Positions 17,833 to 64,000 of a stretch of 64,000 nt of DNA are shown here, piece after piece (position 1 is the stretch's first letter; every line of letters begins with the position of its first letter). The translations under genes were made by a program, and so were the position numbers. This DNA comes from a virus. The DNA lies in IMG/VR virus record IMGVR_UViG_3300026097_000010, positions 1 through 64,000 of that record. One strand, given 5' to 3'. The notes under the pieces were generated by a model. The model did not search any database. It saw nothing but the letters and a program-made list of their open reading frames with translations, and was not told where the DNA came from.

Positions 17833-17838
17833 GTAATT

Positions 17839-17867
17839 ATTATAATAGATTTATAACAAGAAGTCAA
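17839..17867 (-). promoter_or_regulatory. sigma70-type promoter TTGACT-17-TATAAT, 6 nt from the ATG at 17832
   Basis: agtcaa at 17862-17867 and attata at 17839-17844 on +. Confidence 0.78.
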
Positions 17868-18706: not shown

Positions 18707-18772
18707 AATCCTTTACTAAATATTATCAGAGTATTTAATCTAAAAAATATTTTCAAGGACAAAATTAGATAT

Positions 18773-25862: not shown

Positions 25863-25901
25863 GACTTTATTTATAACGGCACCTAATGCATAAATATTTT
25901 C
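25863..25901. promoter_or_regulatory. Back-to-back late-type promoters (TATAAATA on -, TAAATA on +)
   Basis: TATAAATA-6nt-ATG(25862) on -; TAAATA-5nt-ATG(25902) on +. Confidence 0.7.
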
Positions 25902-48079: not shown

Positions 48080-48327
48080 TGAACTTAGAAAAAAGTCAAA
48101 GATTTCAAAAAGAATATCAAAAATATAAAGAAAAAATTGATATCATAGAAAATCCTAAAATAAAAAGTGAAGCTGAACTATTACTTAAATCACTAGTGGC
48201 TGAGGTAAAAAGAATAAACGATCATCACAGTAGATTGTTAACTAGTGGTTCTTTGTCCGATATGGTCCAAGATAGCAGACACAGAATCGTAGAAATTCGA
48301 AAGAAGATAGAAAAAATAATTAAATAG
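48079..48327 (+). CDS. Small coiled-coil hypothetical protein
   Basis: 82-aa ORF coupled by TAATG. Confidence 0.65.
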   Translation: MNLEKSQRFQKEYQKYKEKIDIIENPKIKSEAELLLKSLVAEVKRINDHHSRLLTSGSLSDMVQDSRHRIVEIRKKIEKIIK

Positions 48328-49207
48328 CACTTATGCTTTTAATAGTAATAGCACCGACCATTGATGCATGAATAGAACATTGGTATCTAAAATTAGGCGG
48401 CGATGATAATCCGGTAGGAACTTTCCAGTATAGCGTTCCGCTATCTTTACCTTGTGCATTTACTCCGGTGCTGACTGTTCCGTTTGTTGCAACATGTACT
48501 AATCCTGTATCGTAATTACTTCCGGTGCCATCTTGGATTAAAAAAGGATGTCCTTGCGCGGTAAGTTTGAATGCGATGGTTGTTCCTGTTATTACATATA
48601 ATGCTGGATTATCTGTAGATCCGTATTGGTCAAATCTATAAGAACTTGCTCCGTTGTTTGATACAATTAATTTTGTAATAGCCGGCAAATATATTTCGTC
48701 AATAGTTAATCCAGTAGTCTGTGCATCAGTTAATTCTGTGAAACTAGATGCTCCGCCACCGCCGTCTTGTGTCCCAGTATATGATATAGTTACAACTCCG
48801 TCTGCAACAGAAGTACTAATGTCAGTACCTCCAGCAAACGTTATACTATCAGTTGGCGAAGATGCAACTTGCGATCCGGTGTCTCCCGCAATTGATGAAA
48901 ATAAATTTTGTTGTACACCTTCTCCGCCGCCTTCGTCAACTGTTGCTGACGAAATGGTAATCGAATCTGTATTCGGATTGGTTGTTATAGTTATATTTTC
49001 GCCGGCTATAAGTGTTAACACATCTTCTTTTTGATCGGCGACAATGTCTTCTTGATCCTGAACTGTTATAGTCTTAAAGGTATCAGGAATACTAGCAGGA
49101 CCAGCAGATGTTACTATATTCCATGCAAATCCGTTATACTCCCAAGTAGTTCCGTCTAAAATATATGTTTCAGATATTTCTGGATTTTCTGGAAAATTTA
49201 TTGCCAT
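48320..49207 (-). CDS. Virion fibre-like protein with C-terminal cupredoxin-like motif
   Basis: MAINFP..W.YNG.AW N-terminus, T/G-rich repeats, GHPF..YQCSIHASMVG. Confidence 0.65.
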   Translation of the reverse strand: MAINFPENPEISETYILDGTTWEYNGFAWNIVTSAGPASIPDTFKTITVQDQEDIVADQKEDVLTLIAGENITITTNPNTDSITISSATVDEGGGEGVQQNLFSSIAGDTGSQVASSPTDSITFAGGTDISTSVADGVVTISYTGTQDGGGGASSFTELTDAQTTGLTIDEIYLPAITKLIVSNNGASSYRFDQYGSTDNPALYVITGTTIAFKLTAQGHPFLIQDGTGSNYDTGLVHVATNGTVSTGVNAQGKDSGTLYWKVPTGLSSPPNFRYQCSIHASMVGAITIKSISAI

Positions 49208-49216
49208 GTTATTTCC

Positions 49217-50755
49217 TTATGATGAATATGTTGTTATAGATCCTAACACTTCCCAAGTAGACCCTGTGTTAATTAGTGTAAAAGAAATTACATCTGTCGA
49301 CTCGTTATTAGGTGATGGCTCGATTCCGTCTTGCCATTGAATTGTCTGTGTGGCTCCATCAATTTGAACTTGATTTGGTAAGTAAGCAGTTGCTCCCTGA
49401 TTTAAAAGTAACACAATTGTAATAGCACTGTCAATGCTGCTAGGAACATTTGTAAAATTGACAGTAAAATCGGTTGTCATACCATATAAGAACCAAACTG
49501 ATCCCTGTTCAAAATCAATATTTGATGTAGCACTCGGGTCTGCTAAGGTAGCCATTTTTTCTACTGTTTGCTGTAAAATAGTTGTTCCCGAAATTGTAAT
49601 ATCACCCGAGACTGTGAGATTATTTACAGCATTTATCAGTCCTGGTTGCCACCGGCTATTTCCGTCGTTCCATACCAATGCTTGAGAATCGGATGCTGAA
49701 ACTTGTGATAACGTATGTGTGTTAATTAATCCTTGGTCGGCATCGACTAGTAATGTCGAATCTGTGGAGAATACCGATGATGAAATTGATTCTGGAACTT
49801 CAGTTAAAAACGCTCGATCATTGTCAAGCTCACTTACTTTTTCAGGTATAGATGGCGTGTTTAGTATATCTTCATAACTACCTGTTTCACTAACTTTTGA
49901 TAATACAGGAAGATCAGTTAAGTCGTTATAGCTACCACTAAATGTCGGAAATGCTGGCTGGATCCATTGTTCTGTGTCTCCGTCGTTTATATAAACATAA
50001 AGATAACCAGTAGTCATGTCAAGCCATAAATTACCATTTTCTGGGTCTTCTGGGTTTTCCTCGCTAACTGTTACTCTGCTTCCGCCTTCGCCGATTCCAG
50101 GATCTGCAACAGCAATAGAATTTCCCATGTTTTGATGATTACTACACCAATAATAAAGAATTGCAGGAGTCGAATTAGTAACTAGTATTCGAACTTGTCT
50201 AGAAGTAGCTGTATTAAAAGCTTCGCTGTTGTATACGGCTTGAGTAACTTCGTTCGAATCTAAGAAATATTTTACATTTGTAGTGTAGCTAGTGCCGCCA
50301 TCGAGCTCACCGTTGATGTTATCTGCAGAAAAATTCAACGGATGAGGATTAGGAGTAGTGTTATTCCCGTTTGGAAAATATACATTGGTTAAATCATCTT
50401 GAACAAATATATATGTATAACCTACCACAAAATTCGGTTCGGGGTTATAAATTGCATTTAGATTATATTTGTTTGATAATGTAGAATCGTCCGGATCTGG
50501 ACCTGTAACAGTTACATTATATACCACAGTTGATACATTAGATTCAACGATTTTATCTCTAAATGTATCAACTGCTATATTAGAAAAATCTGCTCTGGCT
50601 AAGCTTAAACCGCCTTTTACAGTTGAATCAAAAAGTCGTAGTGTGTCAAACTCTCGATCATAAAAAATTTCTCCTAGATTTCCAACACGACGATTAAGAA
50701 AATCTGATTCTCTAGGAATAATTCTTACAGCGGTAAATGTTTCAATTTTAGACAT
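49217..50755 (-). CDS. Virion fibre-like protein with internal cupredoxin-like motif
   Basis: HPLNFS..LYYWCSNHQNMG, P.NG.LW.D, SGSYNDLTDLP repeats. Confidence 0.65.
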   Translation of the reverse strand: MSKIETFTAVRIIPRESDFLNRRVGNLGEIFYDREFDTLRLFDSTVKGGLSLARADFSNIAVDTFRDKIVESNVSTVVYNVTVTGPDPDDSTLSNKYNLNAIYNPEPNFVVGYTYIFVQDDLTNVYFPNGNNTTPNPHPLNFSADNINGELDGGTSYTTNVKYFLDSNEVTQAVYNSEAFNTATSRQVRILVTNSTPAILYYWCSNHQNMGNSIAVADPGIGEGGSRVTVSEENPEDPENGNLWLDMTTGYLYVYINDGDTEQWIQPAFPTFSGSYNDLTDLPVLSKVSETGSYEDILNTPSIPEKVSELDNDRAFLTEVPESISSSVFSTDSTLLVDADQGLINTHTLSQVSASDSQALVWNDGNSRWQPGLINAVNNLTVSGDITISGTTILQQTVEKMATLADPSATSNIDFEQGSVWFLYGMTTDFTVNFTNVPSSIDSAITIVLLLNQGATAYLPNQVQIDGATQTIQWQDGIEPSPNNESTDVISFTLINTGSTWEVLGSITTYSS

Positions 50756-50794: not shown

Positions 50795-50820
50795 TTAAGA
50801 TACATTAGGATGCATCTTAA
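50795..50820 (-). terminator. 11-bp RNA hairpin at the 3' end of carbamoyltransferase 2
   Basis: TTAAGATGCAT-CCTA-ATGTATCTTAA on -; the single mismatch is a G-U pair; no strong U tail. Confidence 0.45.
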
Positions 50821-52601
50821 TTTTTAACCGTAAACAACTTTTGATATTCTGGCAAATACAGATACTCAATTTCGCTTTCTTGCAAGGTCCAAAGCGCATC
50901 CTCTAAGGTTTCGACCAGAGGTTCTCCTCCTAAATTAAAACTGGTATTAAACACAATCGGAACTCCAGTTCTATCTTTAAAATCTTTAATTAGATCATAG
51001 TATAATGGGTTTTGCTCTTTATTGACTGTTTGTATTCTGCATGTACCATCTACATGAATAATACCTGGAATTTTTTCTTCAATTCCTTTATGGCAGTTTA
51101 CAGCATACATCATACTAGGTGATGAATCCATCCCTCTTAGATCAAACCACTCGTGAGCATCTTCTTCTAAAATAGATCCTGCAAACGGACGGAAATATTC
51201 TCTGCGTTTTACTGCATTCACATAATCTTTTGCATCGGTATAAGAGGGATCAAAAATTAAACTTCTATTACCAAGCGCACGTGGACCGTTTTCTGATCTT
51301 CCTTGGAACACAGCAACAATATTTTTACTGGTTAATAGATCTATAACATCACTGTTTGATGCTGATTCTAATGTTGCATTATATTTTTTAGATACTTTTT
51401 CAAAGGCATCGTCGGTAAAATCATAAGCAGGTCCTAAGTATAAATCTTCTTTCCTTCCTTGATTTTTAAACATTCCAGTATATCGATAATACTGTAACAT
51501 CGCAGCACCGATTGCTGTTCCTGCATCACTAGACACTGGCTCAACATAAAGATTAATTCCTTTATCTTTTAGTGCATCTAAATAATAATAGTTAGCAACA
51601 CAGTTTAATGCATAACCTCCGCTTAAAACTACATTTGTTTCTCCTGTAATTTCAACTGCACGTTCTATTAATTTTAAAACTTGTTCTTGTGTTTCTTTTT
51701 GACAAGCATATGCTAAATCTCTACGATTTTTAAGTTTTGATAAGTCTTCGTAATTTTCATCAGGATCAAATGCAAGTTCTTTAAAAATTTCAGAATTTAC
51801 TACAGCTGCGTTCGGATACGTCGGAATTATAATATTTCTATTTGCGAGAGGCATAACAGCACTGTCATCAAATAATTGGGGTATATTGTCATTGGATTCG
51901 CCATACGGAAAAAGTCCCATAGTTTTTCCTGCCTCGATTGGCGAAAATCCGCAATATTGAGTTACAGCTTCGTAAACTTTTACAATGCCAGCTCTATCTG
52001 TAACGATCGCTTCGTACACGTGATTGTCATCGTCGGTAGTTTCTGAAATTGAACCCCAATGCGGGCCTCTAGTTCCGATGTGTTTATACACTGTTTTAAA
52101 TTCATGCGGTGGAGAACATTGGAACACTGTTTCTGTTTCCCAGCCTACAGTTGTTTCGTCCATAACTTTTAATGGAATAAAAGTTCCGGCGCCGTCCACG
52201 ATTACAGCGGCAGCTGTTTCGAACCCAGACCTGTAAAAAGCACAAGCTGCATGAAGCTTATGATGTTGTGTGCTAAGATCGATAACCTGAGGATGATTGT
52301 GAATATCGCATTTTCTTTCAATCAGCCCTAGTTTTCTGGCTAGTCCGGTATATACATCGTCTCCTGTATAATCAACATGTCCAGCTGAATCTTTTAATGT
52401 CTGTGTATGAGCCACGACCAAATAGTCTAAACGATCAGTATACTCTAATATTTTCATCATAGAAGCATAAGGGCCTCCATCGTATTTTTGCCTTGAAAAT
52501 CTTTCTTCTTCAATACTAAACACAATTTCGTCATTTTTTAAAAGACAAACTCCTGCGTTGTGTCCTCTAGCAATGCCAGCAATCCATATATCTTTTTTCA
52601 T
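50817..52601 (-). CDS. NodU/CmcH-family carbamoyltransferase (second copy)
   Basis: GHNAG, EEERFSRQK, HHKLHA, VDGAG, GKTMGL, SGGYALNC, DAGTAIG, ENGPRALGNRS, FRPFAG, HVDGTCRIQT, NTSFN. Confidence 0.95.
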   Translation of the reverse strand: MKKDIWIAGIARGHNAGVCLLKNDEIVFSIEEERFSRQKYDGGPYASMMKILEYTDRLDYLVVAHTQTLKDSAGHVDYTGDDVYTGLARKLGLIERKCDIHNHPQVIDLSTQHHKLHAACAFYRSGFETAAAVIVDGAGTFIPLKVMDETTVGWETETVFQCSPPHEFKTVYKHIGTRGPHWGSISETTDDDNHVYEAIVTDRAGIVKVYEAVTQYCGFSPIEAGKTMGLFPYGESNDNIPQLFDDSAVMPLANRNIIIPTYPNAAVVNSEIFKELAFDPDENYEDLSKLKNRRDLAYACQKETQEQVLKLIERAVEITGETNVVLSGGYALNCVANYYYLDALKDKGINLYVEPVSSDAGTAIGAAMLQYYRYTGMFKNQGRKEDLYLGPAYDFTDDAFEKVSKKYNATLESASNSDVIDLLTSKNIVAVFQGRSENGPRALGNRSLIFDPSYTDAKDYVNAVKRREYFRPFAGSILEEDAHEWFDLRGMDSSPSMMYAVNCHKGIEEKIPGIIHVDGTCRIQTVNKEQNPLYYDLIKDFKDRTGVPIVFNTSFNLGGEPLVETLEDALWTLQESEIEYLYLPEYQKLFTVKN

Positions 52602-52611
52602 ATTTTTCCTA

Positions 52612-53547
52612 TTAGCCCTTTTTACCGCTTACGTGGTCGACCACTAAATCTATAATTTCGTCAGTCATTGACATTATATTTTCATTTTTCCTATCTGTTG
52701 CTTCGTCGTGTGTTATACGGATAGGACTGTATTCACGATCATATTCTCCCATATCCAAAATTTCAACATTGTCTGTATTCGGATATGAAACATTTACAGG
52801 GTATGTTGAGCCTGTAACTACTATAGTTTCCTTTTCTAATGCATATGATATATGTTGACCTACACTATCACAACCTAAAAACTTATCAGCATATTTTATG
52901 ACGCCTGCCCAGTGTCTTAACGATATCTGCTCTGGCATTGCTACTTCGTCAACTAAATTAGCATCAGAAAAATCAACTTTAAATTCTGCCATAAGAATCA
53001 CAGCATATCCTTTCTTTTGTAGTCCTTTAATTATTTTTTTGATGTCTTTAAGTTCAAAGCTTCTACCAGTTTTATCAACCAATGTTTCGTCGATGTATTC
53101 TATACTTCGTCCGAACGGCTGAAATACTACTACTTTGTCTTTTTTTACTTGTTTTTTAACTTCGCTTATTACATGTCGCCCGGTAAGCATTTCATCTTTT
53201 GACAGAATTAATTTAGGTTTTGGTAGTTCGCGAACACCTTTTTCGTTTATTTGAATATCAAAAGCTTGAGAAAGGCTACATTCTTGATTATAGTATTCCC
53301 AAATTCTGTAAGGTTCGAGAGACACAATATCTCTATTTAATAGATGAGTTTTAAATAAATTTTTATGCCAAATGTCGTAAGTTTTTCCATCTAAATCAGG
53401 ATGCCCTTTGAACATATCGCTTCCGCCTTCGCTTACGATAATAAAATCTTCATCTCCTGATTCTTCAATGTATTTTTCAAATGCGGGGATTGAACAAATT
53501 ATTCTTCCGGCGCCGCCATTGATAAAAAATGCTTTAGATCTTTGCAT
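52612..53547 (-). CDS. GT9/heptosyltransferase-like GT-B glycosyltransferase
   Basis: NGGAGR, FQPFG, LR.WA.VI..AD.FLGCDSVGQH..AL.K..V..GST. Confidence 0.7.
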   Translation of the reverse strand: MQRSKAFFINGGAGRIICSIPAFEKYIEESGDEDFIIVSEGGSDMFKGHPDLDGKTYDIWHKNLFKTHLLNRDIVSLEPYRIWEYYNQECSLSQAFDIQINEKGVRELPKPKLILSKDEMLTGRHVISEVKKQVKKDKVVVFQPFGRSIEYIDETLVDKTGRSFELKDIKKIIKGLQKKGYAVILMAEFKVDFSDANLVDEVAMPEQISLRHWAGVIKYADKFLGCDSVGQHISYALEKETIVVTGSTYPVNVSYPNTDNVEILDMGEYDREYSPIRITHDEATDRKNENIMSMTDEIIDLVVDHVSGKKG

Positions 53548-53619
53548 TAACCATTCCTTTTAGATATCTACATTATATATCGTTTTTAAGGTTAGTAATT
53601 ATATTTTCTGGTTGTGCAA

Positions 53620-53648
53620 TAAAAAAGCCGATACTTAATATCGGCTTT
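53620..53648 (-). terminator. Intrinsic terminator
   Basis: AAAGCCGATA-TTAAG-TATCGGCTTTTTT on -. Confidence 0.82.
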
Positions 53649-53654
53649 GGTAGA

Positions 53655-54326
53655 TTAATCCTCGGGAGAGTCTGGAGGTGTAGGTGGGGTTTCTTCATCC
53701 ATGAAAGGATCATTGATAGGAAATGGAATTTTCCAATGATCTATTCCTTCATAATTTGTTTTTAGACTTTTAAGAGTTGTTATATAGTCTTTACACTCTT
53801 GAGATTCTGATTCTTCGTCCTCGTAAGATTTTATTAGATTTTCTAATCCATCCCAAAACTCTTCAGCGGTCATTCCATGATCTACAAACGGAGGATTTCT
53901 AAATGTTTCAGATGAAAAATCATAGACCATTTGATTAGGAACAAATACATCGTCAATTATTCCGTTTTCTGGATAATCATAAGTCCATGTAACTTCTCCG
54001 TTGTGTGTGAAAACGTAGTTTTCAATTTCATCAGGGACCCTATATCGATGGGTAATATATGCTGCAGGAAAAGGATTAACTTCAGCGTCAATTAAGATAA
54101 TTTTGCACTCGTCGCCTCGGTAAAACTTATTTAGGTTTATATTTTCCGATTTGCGATAGTATCCCACAGCACTTTCGCATCTGCCAGTGTACGGATCGAC
54201 TTCGATAACTACATATCTAGGACCTTGATAAACGCATGTAACTGTTTTTCCTAGATCGGTCGAATCTTTAAATGGTTCGTCCGGAATTGTAATTGTGAAT
54301 TCTTTTTCAAAATTTGTATCATTCAT
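53655..54326 (-). CDS. Hypothetical acidic protein, possibly a fibre assembly chaperone
   Basis: Follows the Cys-rich array; C-terminal Y...L..L..W.IPFP..P resembles Tfa-type endings. Confidence 0.5.
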   Translation of the reverse strand: MNDTNFEKEFTITIPDEPFKDSTDLGKTVTCVYQGPRYVVIEVDPYTGRCESAVGYYRKSENINLNKFYRGDECKIILIDAEVNPFPAAYITHRYRVPDEIENYVFTHNGEVTWTYDYPENGIIDDVFVPNQMVYDFSSETFRNPPFVDHGMTAEEFWDGLENLIKSYEDEESESQECKDYITTLKSLKTNYEGIDHWKIPFPINDPFMDEETPPTPPDSPED

Positions 54327-55326
54327 CTCTTATAAACCTTATTCTAACGGCTCCGTGGCCGCCTCTCATACCGTGATCGCAAATACCGCTACACGGTAAT
54401 GCACCTAACCCAGGAACTCCAGCTCCCAAATACGGAGTACACCCAGTTGCTTGATAACAGCTGCACCATCTGCCGCCTGCATCATAGCATGCGGAATAGC
54501 TCATTCCAACTGTCGGGCTTTTGGTTGCAGCACCCAAAGCTAAGAAATAAGGCATAACATGTTGGGCGCCGCCACGAGCTGTATCGAAGTTTTCTCCGAT
54601 TTGTACGGTAAGTTCTACACCTTCTTCGGAAAACATGTTGTTTGATGTTACCGGGTAAGCTATCATACAGCATTGCTCACCAGAATCACAACTAAAAATT
54701 CCAATTCTTGAGATGCCGCCGTCAACATTAACGTCGCCGCCGTACGCTTTTGCTATCCAGTCAACTTCTGCACAATGATTGCAAACATACCCGCATCCGT
54801 CAATGGTTTCTGTAACACTAAATCCTTCATCTGAAAAACATGTTAACAAACTCGCACTTCCTGCATTACAGTATGATTGTCCGCCTCGGCCGCCCATTAC
54901 GCACATGCATACATCCGAAATGTCCGTGGCGTTTTCGATACAAAGTTCAGTTGGACAACTACATCCTCTAAAGTTAGTTGCATCTGCATTTCCGCAACTC
55001 ATACCAACTAATCCTGTAACTACAGTATCGCAATCTGCACGAAAAGTTCTTTTAGAGTATGCTGGTGGATTTCCCGGAGTTCCGAATCCGCAACACCGTA
55101 GAGCAGCTCCTGAACCAGCAGCACCCCAGGCTTCTATAATTACTGTACCAGTGGGCGGTTCTTCTCCAGGTTCGGCTCGAGGCGTGAACCAACAAATTCC
55201 TTGAAAGAACTCTGTCTGTTGTGTTCCAGGTGTATATGTCCAAATTTTTCCTTTTTCGATATTGATATCGTTAGCAATTGGATCAAACGCACTTTTTGTT
55301 TTTATTAATTGACTTAGATTTGCCAT
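54319..55326 (-). CDS. Cys/Gly-rich virion-type protein, paralogue 4
   Basis: IEAWGAAGSG..CC..PGN..YS; C-terminal GGHGAVRIRF. Confidence 0.75.
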   Translation of the reverse strand: MANLSQLIKTKSAFDPIANDINIEKGKIWTYTPGTQQTEFFQGICWFTPRAEPGEEPPTGTVIIEAWGAAGSGAALRCCGFGTPGNPPAYSKRTFRADCDTVVTGLVGMSCGNADATNFRGCSCPTELCIENATDISDVCMCVMGGRGGQSYCNAGSASLLTCFSDEGFSVTETIDGCGYVCNHCAEVDWIAKAYGGDVNVDGGISRIGIFSCDSGEQCCMIAYPVTSNNMFSEEGVELTVQIGENFDTARGGAQHVMPYFLALGAATKSPTVGMSYSACYDAGGRWCSCYQATGCTPYLGAGVPGLGALPCSGICDHGMRGGHGAVRIRFIRDE

Positions 55327-56330
55327 TAGTTCGTTCCTATAAATTTAATTCTGACAGCTCCGTGACCGCCTCGTGATGGATGATCTCTGATACTATGCCT
55401 TACTTGTGCTGGCATCCCGCCGATACCGTATGGTATAAAAGGCAAACAACCCATATCTTCGTAGCAACCACACAGTCTGTTTGCACCACTCCAGCATCCA
55501 TTTACGTATAATCCGCCACGCACTGGATTTTTTCCGGCGACAGCTAATCCGTGCATAAATGCAAACGTTTGATTACCTGAGTGATCGCCGTGGGCTACAC
55601 TTTGTTCACCTTGGAAGGTTATAGTTGCACCGTCTTCTGAAAAAATTCCTGGAGGTACAGCAACATGATATTGAGCACAGCAATAACAGTTAGGGTTAGT
55701 ATGCATAATAGATGTGCAGGAAACCCCGCCAAATTTATTAATGTCGCCACCGTATGCAAATCCTCTGCATGAAGGTGTAACTGTAGTAGCATCATATACC
55801 CAGTTGCAGATCAATCCGCAGTTACTGCCGTAAGATACATGTTCGTAGCCTCGTTGAACTAAACAGCAATAAGGTGCTGTGCTGGTAGAACACCTTGAAC
55901 AACCTCCCATGCCGCCTTCTGCACACATGCATCCATTTAGATCTCTTCCTACCCAGCATATGCATGTACTTTCGCTGCATCCCCTATAATCTCTGGCAGA
56001 GGCGTTTCCGCAACTCATGCCAACTGTGCCGCAGATATAAGAACCGGTTTGAACACAAAAAGTTTTTTTAGAATACGCTCCTGCATTTCCAGGTAACGAT
56101 CCGCCACCGCAACAACATTGTCTGCCGGTAGATCCGCCTGCTCCCCATATTTCTAGAACTACTTTACCCGTTCTCGGTGCTTGCCAACAAATTTGACCAT
56201 CTTCATAAAGGTCAGTAGCGTTAGTAGCAGGCGTAAAAACAAAGATTTGCCCTTGCTCGAGGCCTGTATCTCCTATATCGCCATCAGCGATGTCAACTCG
56301 TTTACCTAGTATTTCTGACAAATTTGCCAT
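55326..56330 (-). CDS. Cys/Gly-rich virion-type protein, paralogue 3
   Basis: LEIWGAGGS..CCC..PGN.GAYS; GGHGAVRIKF. Confidence 0.75.
   Translation of the reverse strand: MANLSEILGKRVDIADGDIGDTGLEQGQIFVFTPATNATDLYEDGQICWQAPRTGKVVLEIWGAGGSTGRQCCCGGGSLPGNAGAYSKKTFCVQTGSYICGTVGMSCGNASARDYRGCSESTCICWVGRDLNGCMCAEGGMGGCSRCSTSTAPYCCLVQRGYEHVSYGSNCGLICNWVYDATTVTPSCRGFAYGGDINKFGGVSCTSIMHTNPNCYCCAQYHVAVPPGIFSEDGATITFQGEQSVAHGDHSGNQTFAFMHGLAVAGKNPVRGGLYVNGCWSGANRLCGCYEDMGCLPFIPYGIGGMPAQVRHSIRDHPSRGGHGAVRIKFIGTN
55461..55553. repeat. 93-bp direct repeat, copy 1
   Basis: Identical to 56465-56557 except 55539 G vs 56543 A. Confidence 0.9.
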
Positions 56331-57334
56331 CAGTTTGTTCCTATAAACTTAATTCTCAATGCGCCGTGACCGCCTCGGCCGCCTTTATCTTGTACGTTAG
56401 GCATAGGCTGTTGACCTATACCTCCCATGCCAGTGGGCATCCAGTTTAGACAACCGTGATCGTTGTAGCAACCACACAGTCTGTTTGCACCACTCCAGCA
56501 TCCATTTACGTATAATCCGCCACGCACTGGATTTTTTCCGGCAACAGCTAATCCGTGTAAAACCGAATGTATACCGTTACCTGTATAACATCCGTGGGCT
56601 ACGTTACCTTCACCTTGATATGCAAGTACAGCACCTTCGTCTGCCATGATTCCAGGTGCAACAGCAACATGATATTGAGAACAACAATGACAGTTTGCGC
56701 GGCAATTCATAAAAGTCGCACAAGATATAGTTCCGCATCTGTTAACGTCGCCGCCGTATGCAAATCCTCGAGCATGACACTGTGTCCAATTGCAAATAAG
56801 TCCGCAACAATTATCGTAGCTTGTAAAACAATATCCTGCATTTAGATAACTGCCGTCGCATCTTCCTACAAAACAACAATAAGGCGATGTGCCGGTAGAA
56901 CACTGTGCGATACCGCCTACTCCGCCTTCTGCACACATGCATCCGTCTAGATTTTTCCCTACCCAGCATATGCAGGTACTCTCGCTACAACCTCTAAAAC
57001 AGCTTGTGCTAGCATTGTCGCAGCTTGCACCTACAGTTCCGCAAATATATGAACCTTGTTCTACTGTTATTCTTTTTCTAGAGTATGCTCCGGAATTACC
57101 CGGAATTCCCATTCCGCAGCATCGTCCTCGTGCGCCTGAGCCGCCTGCTCCCCATATTTCAATTGTTACTTCACCGTTTCCGGGAGCCTGCCAACAAATG
57201 TCGCCGTCGTAAAAACTTTCAATGCCGGCAGGCGTAAACACGTAAATTTGGCCTTGTTCTAATCCGCTATCACCTACAGCGCGATCTGCGGTGTCTGCAG
57301 TTCTAGCTCCTAGTAAGGTTGAAAGCAATGCCAT
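56330..57334 (-). CDS. Cys/Gly-rich virion-type protein, paralogue 2
   Basis: IEIWGAGGSG..CC; 31 Cys in 334 aa by manual count; GGHGALRIKF. Confidence 0.75.
   Translation of the reverse strand: MALLSTLLGARTADTADRAVGDSGLEQGQIYVFTPAGIESFYDGDICWQAPGNGEVTIEIWGAGGSGARGRCCGMGIPGNSGAYSRKRITVEQGSYICGTVGASCDNASTSCFRGCSESTCICWVGKNLDGCMCAEGGVGGIAQCSTGTSPYCCFVGRCDGSYLNAGYCFTSYDNCCGLICNWTQCHARGFAYGGDVNRCGTISCATFMNCRANCHCCSQYHVAVAPGIMADEGAVLAYQGEGNVAHGCYTGNGIHSVLHGLAVAGKNPVRGGLYVNGCWSGANRLCGCYNDHGCLNWMPTGMGGIGQQPMPNVQDKGGRGGHGALRIKFIGTN
56465..56557. repeat. 93-bp direct repeat, copy 2
   Basis: Matches 55461-55553 at an offset of 1004 bp. Confidence 0.9.
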
Positions 57335-57335
57335 A

Positions 57336-58328
57336 TTAACTAGATCCTATAAACTTAATTCTAACGGCTCCGTGGCCTCCCATTGCCGCGTGATCTCTCA
57401 TGCCTGAACACGGCGAAGGAGGAGTTCCTGGTATACCGTACGGTACATATGGAGTTCTACCATGAAAATCATAACAGCCGCAGGCGCTTGTTACAGCCCA
57501 ACATGAATAAAAATGTGTTCCTTGGTTTGGACGACGGCTTATAGCATTTACAGCGTACTGTAATTGTGGTAAGAATCCGCCTGACCAATCATGCATTCCG
57601 TTATCCTGATCTGCTGAGAAAGAAACAACAGCGCCATCTAACGAATAAATTCCTGGCGATGTGGCAATATGCTGAGTGTATGCACAAGGTCTAGTACCAC
57701 ATTGGCAATAAAACGAAGTACAACTAAATCCGCCTTTGCAATTAATGTCGCCGCCGTATGCATATGCAATCCAATCTTCGCTTTCGTCATAATTGCATAT
57801 CAAACCGCATTTGCTATTATCGAATACAGTATGACTGTATCCGCACTCAACAAAACAACAGTAAGGCGAACTAGTGCCGTTATCAGTGGTACATAAAGAA
57901 AAGCCGCCACGGCCTCCCATAGCACATATACATCCGGTTTCAGTTGCAGAATAACAGATTTCGGTTGGTTGGCTGCATCCTCTAAAACAGAGATCTGCTT
58001 CACCGTTACCTAGATCACAACAACTTAATCCTATTGATCCGCAAACAAACGATCCTTCGGATACAGTTAATGTTTTTTTAGAATAAGCACCAGGGTTACC
58101 TGGTATTCCAGCGCCGCAACAACACATTCTAGCACCTGATCCAGAAGCTCCCCAAGCTTCTACAACAACAGTACCAGCGCCCGGAGCTTGCCAACAAAAC
58201 GCATCGTCCGATGCTAGGTTTTGATTTCCTGGAGTGAAAACAAAAATTTTCCCTTTTTCAATTCCAGTTCCGCGTTCGGCGACTAATTGTTGCCCTTTTG
58301 TTTTTAAAATATTTGATAAATTTGCCAT
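57336..58328 (-). CDS. Cys/Gly-rich virion-type protein, paralogue 1
   Basis: VEAWGASGSG..CCC..PGNPGAYS; GGHGAVRIKF. Confidence 0.75.
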   Translation of the reverse strand: MANLSNILKTKGQQLVAERGTGIEKGKIFVFTPGNQNLASDDAFCWQAPGAGTVVVEAWGASGSGARMCCCGAGIPGNPGAYSKKTLTVSEGSFVCGSIGLSCCDLGNGEADLCFRGCSQPTEICYSATETGCICAMGGRGGFSLCTTDNGTSSPYCCFVECGYSHTVFDNSKCGLICNYDESEDWIAYAYGGDINCKGGFSCTSFYCQCGTRPCAYTQHIATSPGIYSLDGAVVSFSADQDNGMHDWSGGFLPQLQYAVNAISRRPNQGTHFYSCWAVTSACGCYDFHGRTPYVPYGIPGTPPSPCSGMRDHAAMGGHGAVRIKFIGSS

Positions 58329-58349: not shown

Positions 58350-58682
58350 TTAAGTTCCTGTAAATATCCAGCCATATGTAGTGCCAGTATATAGTAATGT
58401 AACAACTGCACCGTTAACGTCTAACACAACATCCTCAGCGTCTCCGAGGATTAAAGAGCCGTTTCTTGCTAGTGTTACGTTATTGGTTCCAAACGTAGAT
58501 GTTGCATCAATAACTTGCAATGTGTCATTTTCGATAAGAGTTGCGTTTGCAGGGAGAGTAATTTGAAATGAGCCGCCTGATGAATCTGCTAAAATTCTAT
58601 CATTAACTGTTGCATTAAAATTAGCATCCACCTCACGCAATACTGTCGAAGCTGTACCTGTTGTAGTGATATATCTTCCCAT
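58350..58682 (-). CDS. Small virion/fibre-associated protein
   Basis: DSSGG.F.ITLP..D..F..NNVT..RNG..I.G..L.Y..YGW, a phage fibre-type module. Confidence 0.68.
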   Translation of the reverse strand: MGRYITTTGTASTVLREVDANFNATVNDRILADSSGGSFQITLPANATLIENDTLQVIDATSTFGTNNVTLARNGSLILGDAEDVVLDVNGAVVTLLYTGTTYGWIFTGT

Positions 58683-58696
58683 TTTTATTCCTTAGT

Positions 58697-59017
58697 TTAA
58701 CTTGTAGATGTTTCAATGCCGAAGGCAACGGCACTAACATTAGAATTACTTGCTCTAACGACTAGTTTTTGGCCGGCACCTACAATTATACCGGTCCTTT
58801 CTAAAACACCCTTGCCTAAAATTTCTGTATCGTATTCGATATATTCTGCATCGGTGGGTGTGTCGCTATCTGCTACAGCTAGTCTTACAGCAACAGCACT
58901 GTTGCCTCGATTGCAAAATGATACACTTGCAACACCAAATGTTGATGCCGGACAAGTGTAAATAGTTGTATTAGTAGCGGCTGTTAAGTCCCCTGTTCCT
59001 AATCTTCCTGTTGCCAT
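58697..59017 (-). CDS. Small virion protein
   Basis: 106-aa beta-rich ORF with GGAG SD; TATAAATA upstream at 59037-59044. Confidence 0.65.
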   Translation of the reverse strand: MATGRLGTGDLTAATNTTIYTCPASTFGVASVSFCNRGNSAVAVRLAVADSDTPTDAEYIEYDTEILGKGVLERTGIIVGAGQKLVVRASNSNVSAVAFGIETSTS

Positions 59018-59063
59018 GTAAATTATTCTCCTAATGTATTTATATCAAAAAACCAAAAAGCAA

Positions 59064-62000
59064 TTAATCTAAAAAGTAATTAACTGCTAACGGTATTCCA
59101 GTGACGCCGCCTCTAAATTCAAATGTGGCATTCATCTGTATAGCTACTCCAGTAACAGTTGTAATAGTATTTCCAGCAATATTAATAGATCCTGCTGTTA
59201 CACTGTTAACATTAAGTGATGCACCACCACCACCAATTTGCGATGCAATAAATGCCTTAACCGCTCGTTGAGTGGGGACTACGTTATCCGAATCTTCAGT
59301 AAAGAACGGATCTGTACTGAACTCTGTTACGGTTGCCGAACCACCACCTAGTGTTACTTCTCCTAGATTCAACTCCTGCAGACCTGCAATGTTGAATGCA
59401 TCTGCGTTCAATGTTGCAACACCTGTACTTTGTTCAATATTAAACAGATCACCAACTCGGAAATTACCATCCTGGTCAGTCGAAGTATAGAAGACCCTGC
59501 CGCCGTTGTTTTCAACTGTTTCGTTAGCAGGTATAGGATCCTGTGTAGGTTCTCCTGGATAGTTTGTTTCTACAAAATTACCTGTGCCGATATCTAAGAA
59601 GTCGTGTCCTGTAAGTCTAACCTGACTGTATAACGCTCTGGTAGTAACACCTGTTAAATGATCCGGTGCTTCTGCAACCGTAAGTGCAGGACTTACTTGT
59701 AAAAATGCTGTGTAAGTTCCATCAGTTTCACCTAAGAAGGTAATTACATTAACCAGTTTAAAGGTTCTGTTAGGCAAATGATCGAACACTACATTAGATC
59801 CGTCTGACGGTCTTTGTGTTAATCGTCTAATAGCCACAAACGATCCGCTTTGGAAGAAGTCGGCGAATCCGTCGCCAGTGTCAACTTCGGCTGAACCAGT
59901 TTGATATCCAGTTCCTCTATCAACAAATGATGGATTAGCCAATGCACCATTACTCAATCTTACACTAAACGGAGCTTCGAATATATTGTTCGGATCCGTA
60001 ATTGTCATTGTTGGTGGTGTGGTATACCCTGATCCTGGTTCTGTAATCAAAATCTGGAATATCTTGTTTTCAGCTACAGAAGCTCTTGCTCTAGGCTTAG
60101 CACCAGTTTTAACACGTACGGCATGAGTATTTGTTTCTTTGTTTAACGCTACCCAATAACCTACTTGAGAAGGATTTCCAAATGCAAGTGCAGAGAAACC
60201 AGTGGTTTGTGACGAATCTTCTTGATCGGTTACTCCTTCAAATGTCCAGTAGAGGCCGTTTTCTGACTTTGCAATGTTATGATAACCGCTCAACTCGGTA
60301 CTTGCCATTGTTGCAACAAACACTCCTTGGCCATAACGAACTTTTTCGTAACCTGCAGGATCAGTAGAATCGGGAGATCCCATAGTCATTGAAGTCCAGT
60401 CGGCTGTGCCAGACAAACTGTATGCTCCTGTATTGCTGTCAGTAGCAACAGCAATAAACATATTTAGACCATAAGTTATGCTATTCCAGTTAGACGAAGC
60501 TGGCATGTTAGCAGCTGTCCAAGTTCCTGTAGGATCAGTTGCATATGCAATTGCTCCTGTGTTTCCTGGTTTTACAGCTACCCACACTCCTTTTCCGTAA
60601 ACAACATCTACAAATCCAGTGCTAGGTAATGTTCCTGTTTGATCCCAATCAACCCCATCGCCTGATATAGCAACAGTTGTAGAATCAGTTGCTATCGCAA
60701 CAAACTTACTATCACCATATGCAACTGCATTCCAATCATCTGATGTTGGTAAAACTGAACCTAACCAGTTTATTCCGTCATCCGAATAAGCTGCTGTTGT
60801 ACTTCCGGTCGCAAGTGCGACAAATCTGCCTGATTTTCCGTAAGACGAACCATCATCTATCAATCCGTATCCAATTGCAGACCAAGTAGCTGTTGCCGGC
60901 AAGCTCATAGCAGACCAAGTTAATCCATCATTGCTATATGCGCCAGCATTTGATGATACAGAATTTACAGCAACAAATCTGCCGCCGGCGCCTGATCCTG
61001 CGGTATCAATATTTGTAATTGCACCGTTAGCATCAACCGCAGTAATTGTAATGGTAATGTCATTAGTACTATCTTCTCCTCCTAAATTTGAACCGTTAAT
61101 TGTTATGGTTTCAAGTCTAGAATAGTCTGTACCGCTGTTTTGAATCTCTATCAACGAATATTTGGTTCCGTTTCTGATCACTATGAATGATGCACCAGTG
61201 CCTTCACCGCTATACACATCCGGTGTTAGACTAACATAACTGGTCGCTGTATCACCGTACACAGCGTCTTTCCAAGATCCAGAAACAGGAAGGCTAGCAG
61301 TTTCTATTTCTGTTACCGGAGGAGTAAACGATAACGCAGGTTCTATAATATACGTAGTACTAGCATCAGGTGCTACTATAGTAGTTCCTGGAATAACGTG
61401 ATCCCACCCGGCTTGACCATCGCTTTCTCTTGTAACTGTAGCTACCTTGGTTCCGGAATTATAAGTGTTAATGATACCGACTTGTCCGACACCCGATCCG
61501 CCTGTTAATTGAATCCTCATACCTGGATAATCAGTACTGGTTTGTGGATCTGTGGCAGCAATTGTAATTTCGCTAAGAGTTCCTGCCTGCGCGGTATTAG
61601 AATTGGTAATATATCCGTCGCCGCCGAACTGTCCTGACGAGTCATCGCCAAAATCTAATAATCTAATATTATGAACAGCACCGTCGCGGAATTCATCTTG
61701 CTCAACAACCGCGCCAGCTCCGCCGCCCGTGATTGTATATGCCACTTCTGTGTAGTCTTGTCCTGCATTTTCAAATTCAAAATTAAATAATTCCGAACCA
61801 TCAGTGAAGATGTTTCCGATAGTTGCTTCAAATTGGAAAACATTATCAACAACAGCGGTATTAGGAACTTCTGTTTCGTCAAATCCTTCAGCAACTGATC
61901 CAAAATCTCCGTACGAGTTGTTACCATTAGTGCCTCGAATACGGCCACCATCTGTTGCAAGATAACCAATGTGTGCATAATAACTAAATACCGAAACAAG

Positions 62001-64000
62001 TTCTGCTCTACCGTTATTTGCTATCCAGGCACCGATGCCGTCGGAAATTACCTGTGTAAAATCATTGGATACTATTGAGTCGTTTCCACCGTTGTGCAAT
62101 GCACCGTCAATTTTTTGGCCAATTGCTCCACTTCCAAATGTTGATACTCCTTGAACGTATGGCGATCTAGTAATAATCCAGGTACGGAAGTCATCTGGAC
62201 CCCAACCTGGGTCTAGTGAACAATAAGCACCTGCACTAACGCGACTTGTACCATATTCATTTTCTGGGAGTAAGTCTCCTTGTAATCCATCTACAGAACA
62301 ATTACGTAATCCGGTTGCATCTCTAAGATAGAACATGTCTTCTTCATGGCTTCCTATAACAGCATTTGCATAATAGCGAGAAACATAACGAGATTCGTAA
62401 TTCGAAGTGTATCTTAAATCAAATTTTAGAGCATCAATATATGTATTAACATCTCTTAAACATAATTCTCTATTATAGGCCAACTCTAATCCCATAGATC
62501 CTGATGCAGTAGTTAAAGTTACTGGTGTATTCGAATTTCTGGCGGTAGCAATTGTAAAAGTAGTAGAACTAACAACATTTTGCACATAATATGTTGTATC
62601 TGCTTCGATGCCACCAAATGTTGTACCTGTAAATTTGATTGCGGCATTTCTAACTAAATTACTAGTATCGCCGATTGTAATAACATTTGTTGAAGCTGTA
62701 GTATTTGTTGCGGTATTACCGTATGTTTCTGTAATATAAGCTGACACTTCTGCAACGATAAAATCTCTGTTTTCTTCTAATTTTAGTATAGCATAATCTC
62801 TATTTCTAATATCAGTTTGACAAACTTCTCCTTCGTTCGAAGCACCGTAAATTATATTATCAATGATGCCTGCTAGATTATTAATTCTTGCAATAGCATC
62901 TGCATTGCCTCCTACATTAGCAACAGCGCCGTCATTGGTATTGGTTAATGCATATTCAATTGCTTCTCTTATAACCTGTTTTTGGTTAAGATTATAATCT
63001 GCTTTTCTTAGGTAAGCATAGGCTTCTTTATTAGTTTGATATGTTGAATTAAACATAAAATCAAAGCCAGCTGATTTTATTACCGATTCTACATCGTCTG
63101 CAAAGTCGCTACTATTGTATGTTAATGAAGGATAATTAGCATTTATCCAGCTAACGGTGTCAGAACTAATTGTTGAAGCTGCAGAGTTTAATGTACTATA
63201 TGCGTTAATTAAAGCTGTGGTACTATTCACTCCATCTGCAGGTGTAGGATCGGTTAAAGTAACCGACGTTCCGACAGCACTCGGGCCAGTATCAATTATT
63301 TCAATAATATCATCTAGATTATTTCCGACCAATGTAGCAGATGCTGCAGATCCTGCTGTATCTGTAAAATTAACAATTTCGTCGTTAAGAGGAGTGATAG
63401 AGTTTCCAAGAATTACATCGTTAACTCTTGTCTTTAAAAATCCAAGAGCGAGCAAGGTAAACGGTTTAATGCTTGCGCTAATGTTTAAACTGCCTCCGGT
63501 GCCTTCATAATAAGATAGACCGGTTTTCACAGATAACGCATTACCGTCATACGTTAAATCGTAAACCAATGCATCTATAATGTTGCTAATATTTTTCTTA
63601 AATTCTGTCTTGCCGTATTTCAAATTAGGGTAATTAGCTGTAAACCATGCAATAACTTCTTCTTGGAAAAATCTTTTATTTTCCTTAACTAGCTTTCTAG
63701 CATTACCGTATCCGATAAGATAACTGGCGTTATACCCAGTAGGATCTGGCAAATTATATGAGTTGGTAGTTTCAGTTTTAAGCTCAGACTGGAGCTTCAT
63801 TACCTGAATTAATTGCTCTACCACATCTTGTTCTACAGTATCGGCTACAGGAAATGATTGGTCTTGTGCTTCGTTATTTCCAGTTGTAGCTGATACCGTT
63901 GTTCCGGTAACAATTTTTCCGATAACATCTGTCAAATGATCAAATGTTTCTGTTGTATAGTAAGCATCTGAATAATCAATTGATGCAGGTTTTGGTTTAA
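59064..64000 (-). CDS. Giant fibre/baseplate protein (5' end beyond the window); pectin-lyase-like beta-helix plus BNR/propeller-like repeats
   Basis: Frame stays open upstream of 63935 (KPKPASIDYSDAYYTTETFDHL); RSPYVQ..G.KIDG..NDFTQ..AELVSVF; repeated AYS.DG..W and W..V.YG..FVA. Confidence 0.8.
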   Translation of the reverse strand, partial: KPKPASIDYSDAYYTTETFDHLTDVIGKIVTGTTVSATTGNNEAQDQSFPVADTVEQDVVEQLIQVMKLQSELKTETTNSYNLPDPTGYNASYLIGYGNARKLVKENKRFFQEEVIAWFTANYPNLKYGKTEFKKNISNIIDALVYDLTYDGNALSVKTGLSYYEGTGGSLNISASIKPFTLLALGFLKTRVNDVILGNSITPLNDEIVNFTDTAGSAASATLVGNNLDDIIEIIDTGPSAVGTSVTLTDPTPADGVNSTTALINAYSTLNSAASTISSDTVSWINANYPSLTYNSSDFADDVESVIKSAGFDFMFNSTYQTNKEAYAYLRKADYNLNQKQVIREAIEYALTNTNDGAVANVGGNADAIARINNLAGIIDNIIYGASNEGEVCQTDIRNRDYAILKLEENRDFIVAEVSAYITETYGNTATNTTASTNVITIGDTSNLVRNAAIKFTGTTFGGIEADTTYYVQNVVSSTTFTIATARNSNTPVTLTTASGSMGLELAYNRELCLRDVNTYIDALKFDLRYTSNYESRYVSRYYANAVIGSHEEDMFYLRDATGLRNCSVDGLQGDLLPENEYGTSRVSAGAYCSLDPGWGPDDFRTWIITRSPYVQGVSTFGSGAIGQKIDGALHNGGNDSIVSNDFTQVISDGIGAWIANNGRAELVSVFSYYAHIGYLATDGGRIRGTNGNNSYGDFGSVAEGFDETEVPNTAVVDNVFQFEATIGNIFTDGSELFNFEFENAGQDYTEVAYTITGGGAGAVVEQDEFRDGAVHNIRLLDFGDDSSGQFGGDGYITNSNTAQAGTLSEITIAATDPQTSTDYPGMRIQLTGGSGVGQVGIINTYNSGTKVATVTRESDGQAGWDHVIPGTTIVAPDASTTYIIEPALSFTPPVTEIETASLPVSGSWKDAVYGDTATSYVSLTPDVYSGEGTGASFIVIRNGTKYSLIEIQNSGTDYSRLETITINGSNLGGEDSTNDITITITAVDANGAITNIDTAGSGAGGRFVAVNSVSSNAGAYSNDGLTWSAMSLPATATWSAIGYGLIDDGSSYGKSGRFVALATGSTTAAYSDDGINWLGSVLPTSDDWNAVAYGDSKFVAIATDSTTVAISGDGVDWDQTGTLPSTGFVDVVYGKGVWVAVKPGNTGAIAYATDPTGTWTAANMPASSNWNSITYGLNMFIAVATDSNTGAYSLSGTADWTSMTMGSPDSTDPAGYEKVRYGQGVFVATMASTELSGYHNIAKSENGLYWTFEGVTDQEDSSQTTGFSALAFGNPSQVGYWVALNKETNTHAVRVKTGAKPRARASVAENKIFQILITEPGSGYTTPPTMTITDPNNIFEAPFSVRLSNGALANPSFVDRGTGYQTGSAEVDTGDGFADFFQSGSFVAIRRLTQRPSDGSNVVFDHLPNRTFKLVNVITFLGETDGTYTAFLQVSPALTVAEAPDHLTGVTTRALYSQVRLTGHDFLDIGTGNFVETNYPGEPTQDPIPANETVENNGGRVFYTSTDQDGNFRVGDLFNIEQSTGVATLNADAFNIAGLQELNLGEVTLGGGSATVTEFSTDPFFTEDSDNVVPTQRAVKAFIASQIGGGGASLNVNSVTAGSINIAGNTITTVTGVAIQMNATFEFRGGVTGIPLAVNYFLD

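Follow-up and report, generated by a model that had tools for sequence, protein, structure and literature searches.

Why would a phage carry a glycosyltransferase-like gene and a carbamoyltransferase gene among its tail-fibre genes, behind a tandem array of cysteine-rich proteins? The question is raised by a stretch of 64 kb (hereafter the window), the first part of IMG/VR record IMGVR_UViG_3300026097_000010, which is a single linear virus sequence of 152,482 bp. The seven open reading frames (ORFs) of the module were confirmed at 50817-58328 of the window, all on the minus strand. An earlier reading of the DNA letters (the original prediction) had seen here a dedicated system for placing a carbamoylated sugar on fibre proteins, perhaps on their Cys residues. 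ORFs, composition and protein families bore out the layout on which it was built: four tandem Cys/Gly-rich proteins of ~330 amino acids (aa), an acidic protein and a pair consisting of a GT-B glycosyltransferase (GT) and a carbamoyltransferase, set among fibre genes. The module is real, widespread and undescribed, and it is a variant of the adhesin-plus-glycosyltransferase theme; a link between the Cys residues and the sugar is speculative. With a probability of about 0.5, the module would produce chaperoned late fibre tips decorated with a carbamoylated, heptose-type sugar.

CheckV estimated the record to be 42% complete. Relatives with the same module reached 353-364 kb and were rated 98-100% complete, from which we conclude that the record probably comes from a T4-like jumbo phage of an aquatic habitat. 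Along the minus strand, the gene order is a 1623-aa fibre protein, small proteins of 106 and 110 aa, the four Cys-rich paralogues, the acidic protein, a spacer of 107 nucleotides (nt), the GT9-like protein, the carbamoyltransferase and two baseplate/fibre proteins.

The Cys/Gly-rich proteins

The array consists of paralogue 1 (57336..58328, 330 aa, 27 Cys, 8.2%), paralogue 2 (56330..57334, 334 aa, 31 Cys, 9.3%), paralogue 3 (55326..56330, 334 aa, 27 Cys, 8.1%) and paralogue 4 (54319..55326, 335 aa, 24 Cys, 7.2%), all on the minus strand. They rank as the top four for Cys among the 103 ORFs of at least 150 aa in the 152-kb record, where the median is 0.96%. Gly accounts for 14-18% of their residues. 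CC, CCC and CxC clusters are present in the translations, and no hydrophobic N-terminus was seen in them. Pairwise identity was 35-60%, with paralogue 1 being 40-45% and paralogue 4 being 35-42% identical to the other paralogues. Paralogues 1, 2 and 4 were affiliated with phrog_4205 (E 4e-06 for paralogue 4). A patch of 113 nt was 93% identical between paralogue 3 (55446-55558) and paralogue 2 (56450-56562), compared with 72-73% in the other aligned stretches, which suggests that gene conversion probably occurred inside the array.

The fold was addressed by an AlphaFold2 model of paralogue 3, built from 46 relatives (predicted local distance difference test, pLDDT, 79.9; predicted TM-score, pTM, 0.81). 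It matched the tail fibre gp24 of cyanophage Pam3 (7ypx_A) with a Z score of 15.9 and a root-mean-square deviation of 2.9 over 194 residues, the tail-tip protein of mycobacteriophage Bxb1 (9d93_Qa) with Z 11.5, the glycine-rich domains of ALK/LTK with Z 8.0-9.0 and ordinary TNF/C1q domains with Z 4.6 at most. At the sequence level, the family profile matched no solved structure, and Pfam Gly_rich_2 (PF21722) remained below threshold, with 15.2 bits and, for paralogue 2, 18.1 bits against a cut-off of 24.3. By this model, the paralogues are fibres that combine a TNF-like with a glycine-rich domain, and because of the match to Pam3 gp24 we take them to be receptor-binding fibre proteins. The fibre type assumed in the original prediction is thereby supported.

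The sections consulted of the Pam3 papers describe gp24 as a trimeric receptor-binding fibre, in which a TNF-like sandwich is combined with a lattice of glycine-rich motifs, and gp25, encoded directly after gp24, as its chaperone (PMC9608196, PMC9942802). According to the same sections, disulfides link the Pam3 fibres in the virion, from which dithiothreitol frees them, and Cys residues and disulfides matter in virion assembly. The likeness to gp24 (PDB 7ypx, 7yfw) thus covers the modelled beta-sandwich with its glycine-rich lattice, a putative receptor-binding role at the fibre end and a gene directly downstream, which in Pam3 encodes the chaperone. There are also differences. The window paralogues share no detectable sequence similarity with gp24, have a short N-terminal helix only, where gp24 has a long docking helix bundle, and contain 24-31 Cys. 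The module family has two to four tandem copies, and the window paralogues precede two enzymes, none of which is mentioned for Pam3 in the sections consulted.

The Cys-rich family is small (229 clusters). Its 298 relatives among 5.8 billion proteins include none with a name. In a search of 1.84 billion proteins, all 81 full-length cluster representatives had 5.6-12.3% Cys, and no low-Cys member was found among them at a distance detectable by HMMER. Cys-richness is therefore a trait of the whole family. Conservation peaked in the glycine-rich core (residues 61-90, 131-140 and 321-330) and had its minima in five segments (11-20, 91-100, 161-170, 181-190 and 241-260), and an N-terminal MANLS..L motif was common to the paralogues. 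This pattern is consistent with a constant scaffold that has variable loops and a docking end in common. About 27 alignment columns with at least 80% Cys were scattered over the strands and loops of the predicted beta-sandwich core. The total Cys count was odd in 64 and even in 57 of 121 proteins. Some variable Cys columns were gained, lost or swapped jointly; such covariation is suggestive of pairing, but in related sequences it proves nothing. The variable Cys columns often alternated with Thr or Ser.

The enzyme pair

The GT9-like GT-B protein (52612..53547, minus strand, 311 aa) matched phrog_8954 with E 2e-137. The GT9 family PF01075 was matched marginally, by the C-terminal part only (22.6 bits, cut-off 22.0). 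The best sequence matches were the NCBIfam models for heptosyltransferases I and III and RfaQ, with 17-28 bits against cut-offs of 170-467, and no solved GT9 was found by sequence with the family profile. The structural model (pLDDT 86) aligned with GT9 structures over 254-280 residues (Foldseek E 3e-9 to 8e-8). Z scores were 23.0 for the Veillonella GT9 structure 3tov, 20.6 for WaaF, 19.0 for the protein heptosyltransferase TibC and 18.9 for WaaC, versus 12.2 for the best GT-B structure outside GT9. The predicted fold is unambiguously GT9-like.

Alignment with Escherichia coli WaaC by hhalign was limited to the donor motif, where the phage GCDSVGQH lay on the WaaC SVDTGLSH and D227, invariant in 36 sequences, aligned with WaaC D261. 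The N-terminal sequence is SSMGD13VLHTLPAL in WaaC and NGGAGR15IICSIPAF in the phage family, and an invariant NGGxGR15 stands where WaaC has GD13. This part was aligned by eye, anchored with identical spacing on WaaC P19/phage P21 and on the next strand (F33/F35). We take D13 to be the catalytic general base, in line with the WaaC literature. Across the 36 GT9-like sequences, 83 columns were invariant, which argues for a working protein. Of the three Cys in the protein, C90 and C226 are invariant.

The neighbouring gene (50817..52601, minus strand, 594 aa) encodes a carbamoyltransferase of the NodU/CmcH/TobZ type, with phrog_1601 matched at E 1e-165. It has a Kae1-like N-terminal domain (PF02543, E 2.1e-26, 93.7 bits, cut-off 24) and a YrdC-like C-terminal domain (PF16861, E 1.4e-58, 197.6 bits, cut-off 27), and is 62-70% identical in relatives. 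It is not a NodU orthologue: NodU (NF041651), its best NCBIfam match, reached 132.6 bits, compared with an equivalog cut-off of 1000. Recent cyanophage genome papers list a NodU-like carbamoyltransferase as an auxiliary gene of pyrimidine synthesis (PMC9146016, PMC10436341). That label is contradicted by the predicted domain composition, PF02543 plus PF16861, which is unlike that of aspartate carbamoyltransferase. A second NodU-like carbamoyltransferase is found at 3-1106 of the window (minus strand, phrog_1601, E 3e-55). It is cut off by the start of the record and is 24-28% identical to the second copy of S-SSM7.

Linkage of the Cys-rich genes to the enzymes

Scanning IMG/VR with the Cys-rich family yielded 80 loci. 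In 68 of them, two small genes were followed by two to four Cys-rich genes, the acidic gene, the GT9-like gene and the carbamoyltransferase gene, in this order; most of the others end before the enzymes. Eight loci had a solitary paralogue (9.7-10.7% Cys) beside other fibres. They were rejected as exceptions to the synteny, as the full module, including two further paralogues, was located ~25 kb downstream in four out of four evaluable contigs.

The GT9-like and carbamoyltransferase genes were adjacent in all cyanophage-type and jumbo relatives. In some of the contigs with a solitary paralogue, a gene of 286 aa whose N-terminus (LFVLGCSF..) looks SGNH/GDSL-like lies between the two (L092 15557-16417, L093 16621-17484), and may represent a further sugar-tailoring step.

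The cultured cyanophages S-CAM1, S-SSM7 and P-SSM2 have the same gene order, which is also preserved in S-CAM3, Sf-FS3, P-SSM5 and single-cell viruses; IMG/VR contigs that preserve it number about 69. Cys-rich proteins of the first three contain 8.4-11.6% Cys and are 23-40% identical to those of the window, in partial alignments; the corresponding enzymes are 45-62% identical. Identities in relatives were 45-70% for the enzymes versus 23-48% for the fibre tips.

Co-occurrence was further assessed in 50,697 phage records, 24 of which were positive by tblastn with the GT9-like protein. Megablast with the window region and tblastn with paralogue 3 gave no match in this collection; composition-corrected BLAST is too weak for the family. 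Three Cys-rich proteins from isolates were used as tblastn queries in place of the window paralogue. They detected only GT9-positive records and contig MH319732, which belongs to the single-cell virus AG-345-E02, whose contig MH319735 carries the GT9-like gene.

Three GT9-positive records were without a BLAST-detectable Cys-rich relative, and each has Cys-rich ORFs directly upstream. The upstream ORF of virus AG-345-P14 has 282 aa and 9.2% Cys, and those of Marine virus AG-345-O18 (L096 4024-7169) have 758 aa with 9.6% Cys and 290 aa with 10.7% Cys. In Aeromonas phage HJ05 (L097 6303-8918), the ORF encodes 559 aa, of which 23 are Cys; the protein combines a GGGAS motif with a C-terminal strand like that of the family, and its gene ends 13 nt before the GT9-like gene. 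The two AG-345-O18 proteins contain many Trp/Tyr-Cys runs, have no detectable similarity to the family and occupy the same slot upstream of the enzymes. When six loci were picked via the GT9-like gene alone, all ORFs with at least 8% Cys (11 of 11) were within 3.3 kb upstream of it. The N4-like Vibrio phages are a weaker case: a shorter homologue of the HJ05 enzyme directly precedes a tail protein with 41 Cys (925 and 1756 aa; L105 6908-12924, L106 6914-10435). Neither HJ05 nor the N4-like Vibrio phages have a carbamoyltransferase next to the GT9-like gene, and a search of IMG/VR gave no close relatives of the HJ05 enzyme. Co-occurrence, proposed at the outset as a check on the system, was thus observed: in virtually all relatives that could be evaluated, Cys-rich genes precede the enzyme pair, and Cys-rich relatives turned up only in GT9-positive phage records.

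Gene neighbourhood and regulatory elements

On either side, the module is flanked by fibre, adaptor-like and baseplate-connector genes. Directly upstream is the long tail-fibre protein (59064..63935, minus strand, 1623 aa; phrog_9851 tail fiber protein, E 4.7e-79), homologues of which lead into the module in 77 related loci. The two small proteins that follow are fibre-related and possibly adaptors. The 106-aa protein (58697..59017, minus strand) matched segments of phrog_11338 and of phrog_693 tail fiber protein, has 43-70% identity and keeps its position in 68 loci, S-CAM1 and P-SSM2. The 110-aa protein (58350..58682, minus strand) matched segments of many tail and tail-spike PHROGs and is syntenic in 68 loci. 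Downstream, two fibre/baseplate proteins (48320..50755, minus strand) round off the structural context; Pfam found no cupredoxin domain in them. The 512-aa protein is of a baseplate-wedge/fibre type (phrog_708 baseplate wedge subunit plus fibre PHROGs), and the 295-aa protein is gp9-like (phrog_677 baseplate wedge tail fiber connector, E 2e-42). That the module is a tail-fibre operon carrying its own tailoring enzymes has, in our judgement, an even chance of being right.

The acidic protein (53655..54326, minus strand, 223 aa, 20.6% Asp+Glu, phrog_9740) is a candidate fibre chaperone. Its gene invariably separates the Cys-rich genes from the GT9-like gene, a position that parallels Pam3 gp25, and it is the fastest-evolving member of the module (25-35% identity). 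The family profile found no solved relative. Pfam Caudo_TAP was weakly matched in one of 19 family members (E 0.17), and feature matches to tail-assembly chaperone clusters in the ESM Atlas scored 0.80-0.82, below the level that counts. From position, fast evolution and these weak leads, we infer a putative fibre-tip chaperone.

The terminator that had been placed between the array and the enzymes was recovered directly after the acidic gene, as an intrinsic-terminator-like hairpin with an 11-pair stem and a T run behind it (53648-53624, minus strand). A hairpin with a T run is found at the matching place in most relatives. At the other end of the array, an exact match to the T4-type late-promoter-like octamer TATAAATA (59037..59044, minus strand) is located 20 nt upstream of the 106-aa gene. 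Across the window this motif was not enriched (5 found, 8 expected), and its putative late-promoter function is read from its position only. A promoter-like element, ATATATAAT (53572..53580, minus strand), lies 25 nt upstream of the start codon of the GT9-like gene. In most related loci, TATATAAT recurs in the spacer between the acidic and GT9-like genes, often within the loop of the terminator hairpin; it was not enriched elsewhere in the window. The terminator and the promoter-like TATATAAT overlap in many relatives.

Donor-sugar genes

In S-CAM1, S-SSM7, P-SSM2 and single-cell viruses, five gene types come directly after the carbamoyltransferase: a heptose-1-phosphate adenylyltransferase, a PfkB-type kinase, a small HAD phosphatase, a cupin and an epimerase. 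In isolates and single-cell viruses, the HAD phosphatase is annotated as an isomerase and the cupin as a cysteine dioxygenase. In complete jumbo relatives, heptose-activation genes lie ~10 kb away from the module, as either a kinase/adenylyltransferase pair or an HldE-like fusion.

The window has a possible source of donor sugar in a fusion of a heptose-1-phosphate adenylyltransferase-like domain with a PMI-type cupin (25083..25928, minus strand; PF01467, PF01050, phrog_7878; TIGR02199 rfaE_dom_II at 82 bits, below cut-off). The adenylyltransferase encoded after the module in S-CAM1, S-SSM7 and P-SSM2 is its homologue. The sugar cluster of the window, at 24409-27046, is indeed ~24 kb away from the module, as had been noted. 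It also includes a GT8-like gene (24409-25086) and two tandem sulfotransferase-family genes (25902-26477 and 26474-27046). A WbuC-type cupin is found at 13637-13981. Beside the sugar genes, at 16654-23702, are eight consecutive ORFs of 138-392 aa with no Pfam match and, for those tested, no NCBIfam match. Heptose kinase, SIS isomerase and epimerase families were not found in the record, which at 42% completeness is not evidence of their absence. Judging by the heptose genes beside or near the module in relatives, the donor of the GT9-like enzyme would be ADP-heptose, a compound that E. coli makes.

Comparison with known systems

TibC and Aah heptosylate the adhesins TibA and AIDA-I, beside which they are encoded (PDB 4RAP, 4RB4). 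As in these systems, a GT9-fold enzyme (Z 19.0 for TibC) is encoded beside an adhesin- or fibre-type gene, and this adjacency is universal in the phage loci. The proposed likeness extends to ADP-heptose as the likely donor and to glycosylation of the adhesin in the cytoplasm before it is displayed. The phage enzyme differs in that it aligns to TibC residues 92-388 only, without the N-terminal region, and in that its three Cys make a four-Cys iron finger impossible. It had no NCBIfam match for the BAHT family and has Arg at the general-base position. The substrates differ as well, being Ser-rich beta-helix repeats for TibC and Cys-rich, predicted TNF-like domains in the phage.

For the second step, there is a precedent in Pseudomonas, where WapO (PA5005) carbamoylates heptose II of the lipopolysaccharide (LPS) core to 7-O-carbamoyl-heptose (PMC8005017). 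WaaC/WaaF and WapO likewise pair a GT9 fold (Z 18.9-20.6) with a NodU-family carbamoyltransferase, in the same chemistry as proposed here. The Pseudomonas enzymes act on Kdo-lipid A and belong to a core-biosynthesis cluster, whereas the phage pair lies within a fibre operon. Sequence similarity of WaaC/WaaF to the phage enzyme is confined to the C-terminal donor motif, and Asp13 is replaced.

True homologues of the module enzymes exist in the 'LPS gene' cluster of cyanomyoviruses (T4-GC 302-308; P-SSM2, S-SSM7, S-SM2). P-SSM2 genes 307/308 and S-SSM7 genes 120/121 encode the GT9-like protein and the carbamoyltransferase, and heptose genes follow. In the sections consulted of two papers, the cluster is treated as possible host-surface modifiers or stuffer DNA, and no link is drawn there to the adjacent Cys-rich hypothetical proteins (PMC1079782, PMC3037559). 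Our literature search found no paper that describes the Cys-rich proteins or ties them to the enzymes. S-glycosylation of glycocins (SunS/GccA) shares only the idea of a sugar on cysteine: the glycocin enzymes, of the GT2/GT-A type, modify small secreted peptides, while the phage enzyme is GT-B and GT9-like.

Proposed function and alternatives

We propose that a late transcript, running from upstream of the 106-aa gene to the hairpin, would provide the adaptors, the fibre tips and the acidic protein. The paralogues would serve as alternative or co-assembling tips, and the acidic protein would fold them, by analogy with Pam3 gp25. The enzyme pair would be transcribed from its own conserved TATATAAT element. 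Heptose-activation genes of the phage would make an ADP-heptose-type donor, from which the GT9-like enzyme would move a heptose-type sugar onto a module protein, most likely the Cys-rich tips. The carbamoyltransferase would then O-carbamoylate the sugar at the expense of carbamoyl phosphate and ATP. Of the 24-31 Cys in each protein, most would be structural and would form disulfides once the virion is in oxidising water, rather than being glycosylation sites. Disulfides are taken as the default role of the Cys residues because they are proven in the Pam3 virion; the original prediction had offered them as an alternative, and they now have a direct precedent in the closest solved homologue. Its central claim, a carbamoylated sugar on fibre proteins, is plausible from the enzyme families, the nearby heptose genes and the WapO precedent, with the target of the sugar unproven. 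Its suggestion that the sugar is attached to Cys found no support beyond one hint, the invariant Arg at the position of the catalytic Asp of WaaC.

Several observations weigh against this proposal. The canonical catalytic Asp is replaced by the invariant Arg15, and an enzyme with Arg15 may have another acceptor, use another base or be non-catalytic. GT9-fold proteins can be purely structural, and chloroplast NDH subunits are among the fold matches. Of the heptose pathway, the record shows only the adenylyltransferase-cupin fusion. The terminator and the separate promoter-like element set the enzymes apart from the fibre genes, and the timing of expression may differ. The chaperone role of the acidic protein draws on its position and weak leads only, and a glycan on phage proteins of this group is predicted from the genes. 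Most of the related loci belong to one broad clade, and the raw counts overstate the number of independent observations.

The strongest competitor concerns the host rather than the virion. The GT9-like enzyme and the carbamoyltransferase might modify a glycan of the host envelope, the LPS core or another polysaccharide, and thereby mask the receptor of the neighbouring tips. Masking would protect the cell from superinfection and keep progeny from being trapped on debris, and the genes for binder and masker would be inherited together. T5-like phages provide examples of receptor-blocking genes beside receptor-binding ones. The best sequence matches of the GT9-like protein, the LPS heptosyltransferases I, III and RfaQ, agree with receptor masking, as do the promoter-like element and the insulation of the pair by the terminator. 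So do the published reading of the cyanophage homologues as 'LPS genes' and the occurrence of carbamoylated heptose in the LPS core of Pseudomonas (PMC8005017). We nevertheless consider receptor masking unlikely. It leaves unexplained the extreme Cys content of the neighbouring fibre protein across all lineages, including those in which the protein is beyond recognition by BLAST. The enzymes (45-70% identity) are far more conserved than the tips (23-48%), which is unexpected if enzyme specificity tracked the receptor, and the catalytic Asp that is used on LPS acceptors is replaced.

Alternatively, the sugar could be S-linked to Cys, with the Arg in place of the general-base Asp stabilising a thiolate, and part of the Cys excess would then consist of glycosylation sites. 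The invariant NGGxGR15 at the site of WaaC GD13, with identical spacing to the conserved Pro and the next strand, is compatible with such a role. The link between GT9-like genes and Cys-rich tail proteins also spans distant phages, including HJ05 and, more weakly, the N4-like Vibrio phages, and variable Cys columns often swap with Thr or Ser. GT-B enzymes that glycosylate thiols exist, namely plant UGT74B1 and OGT. To our knowledge, the known GT9-fold enzymes are O-transferases, and we know of no GT9-fold S-transferase; the S-glycosyltransferases of glycocins are GT-A/GT2. The ~27 Cys columns with at least 80% conservation across the beta-sandwich core fit a structural role, and the coupled changes of Cys columns are in keeping with pairing. 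Disulfides exist in virions with this fibre type (Pam3), and an exchange of Cys for Thr is ordinary at buried beta-strand positions. S-linkage therefore appears to us a long shot. If heptose were indeed placed on Cys thiolates and then carbamoylated, it would be the first S-linked heptose, and S-glycosylation would be new both to the GT9 fold and to virions. S-linkage would also account for the association of a GT9-like gene with Cys-rich tail proteins in cyanomyoviruses, jumbo phages, an Aeromonas phage and perhaps N4-like Vibrio phages.

It is equally improbable that the GT9-like protein is a non-transferase factor for folding, assembly or scaffolding of the tips, with the carbamoyltransferase belonging to an unrelated sugar or small-molecule pathway. 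The loss of the canonical catalytic Asp would be accounted for, and GT9-fold subunits of chloroplast NDH, which have no enzymatic role, are among the top fold matches. No carbamoyltransferase neighbours the GT9-like gene in HJ05 and the Vibrio phages, and carbamoyltransferases occur elsewhere in genomes with the module (including window 3-1106) and in cyanophages without the GT9-like gene. However, the donor motif with D227 (WaaC D261) is invariant, and 83 invariant columns in 36 sequences are typical of an active enzyme. Moreover, heptose-activation genes travel with the module, and every cyanophage-type and jumbo relative has the GT9-like gene next to the carbamoyltransferase.

A further alternative bears on the Cys residues and is independent of the role of the enzymes. 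They could mainly be ligands of metals, in Zn, Fe or Cu thiolate clusters, and the tips would be metalloproteins. T4-type fibres bind metal ions, the CC, CCC and CxC clusters would suit such sites, folding takes place in a reducing cytoplasm, and the odd Cys counts (64 odd, 57 even) imply that not every Cys is paired within its chain. Inter-chain disulfides in a trimer can resolve the odd counts, though, and disulfides are what the Pam3 precedent shows. No His-rich or recognisable metal-site motif was found in the proteins, and the linkage to the GT9-like gene would be left unexplained, so that we regard a metal-binding role as having a slim chance.

DNA hypermodification by the GT9-like enzyme, which a preprint on phage DNA glycosyltransferases had prompted us to consider, was set aside because the genes lie in the fibre operon; no cytosine-modifying genes were present beside the module in the annotated isolate loci, and they were not searched for elsewhere.

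Implications for phage biology

Host recognition by marine and freshwater phages sets which cyanobacteria and other plankton die, and the fibre tips involved are almost uncharacterised. With this module, there is a defined and widespread case, open to testing, in which a phage would tailor its own receptor-binding proteins, and cultured carriers exist (S-CAM1, S-CAM3, S-SSM7, Sf-FS3, P-SSM2 and P-SSM5). If the proposed decoration of fibre tips is true, it would reassign genes that have been filed as 'LPS genes', as stuffer DNA or as auxiliary genes of pyrimidine synthesis.

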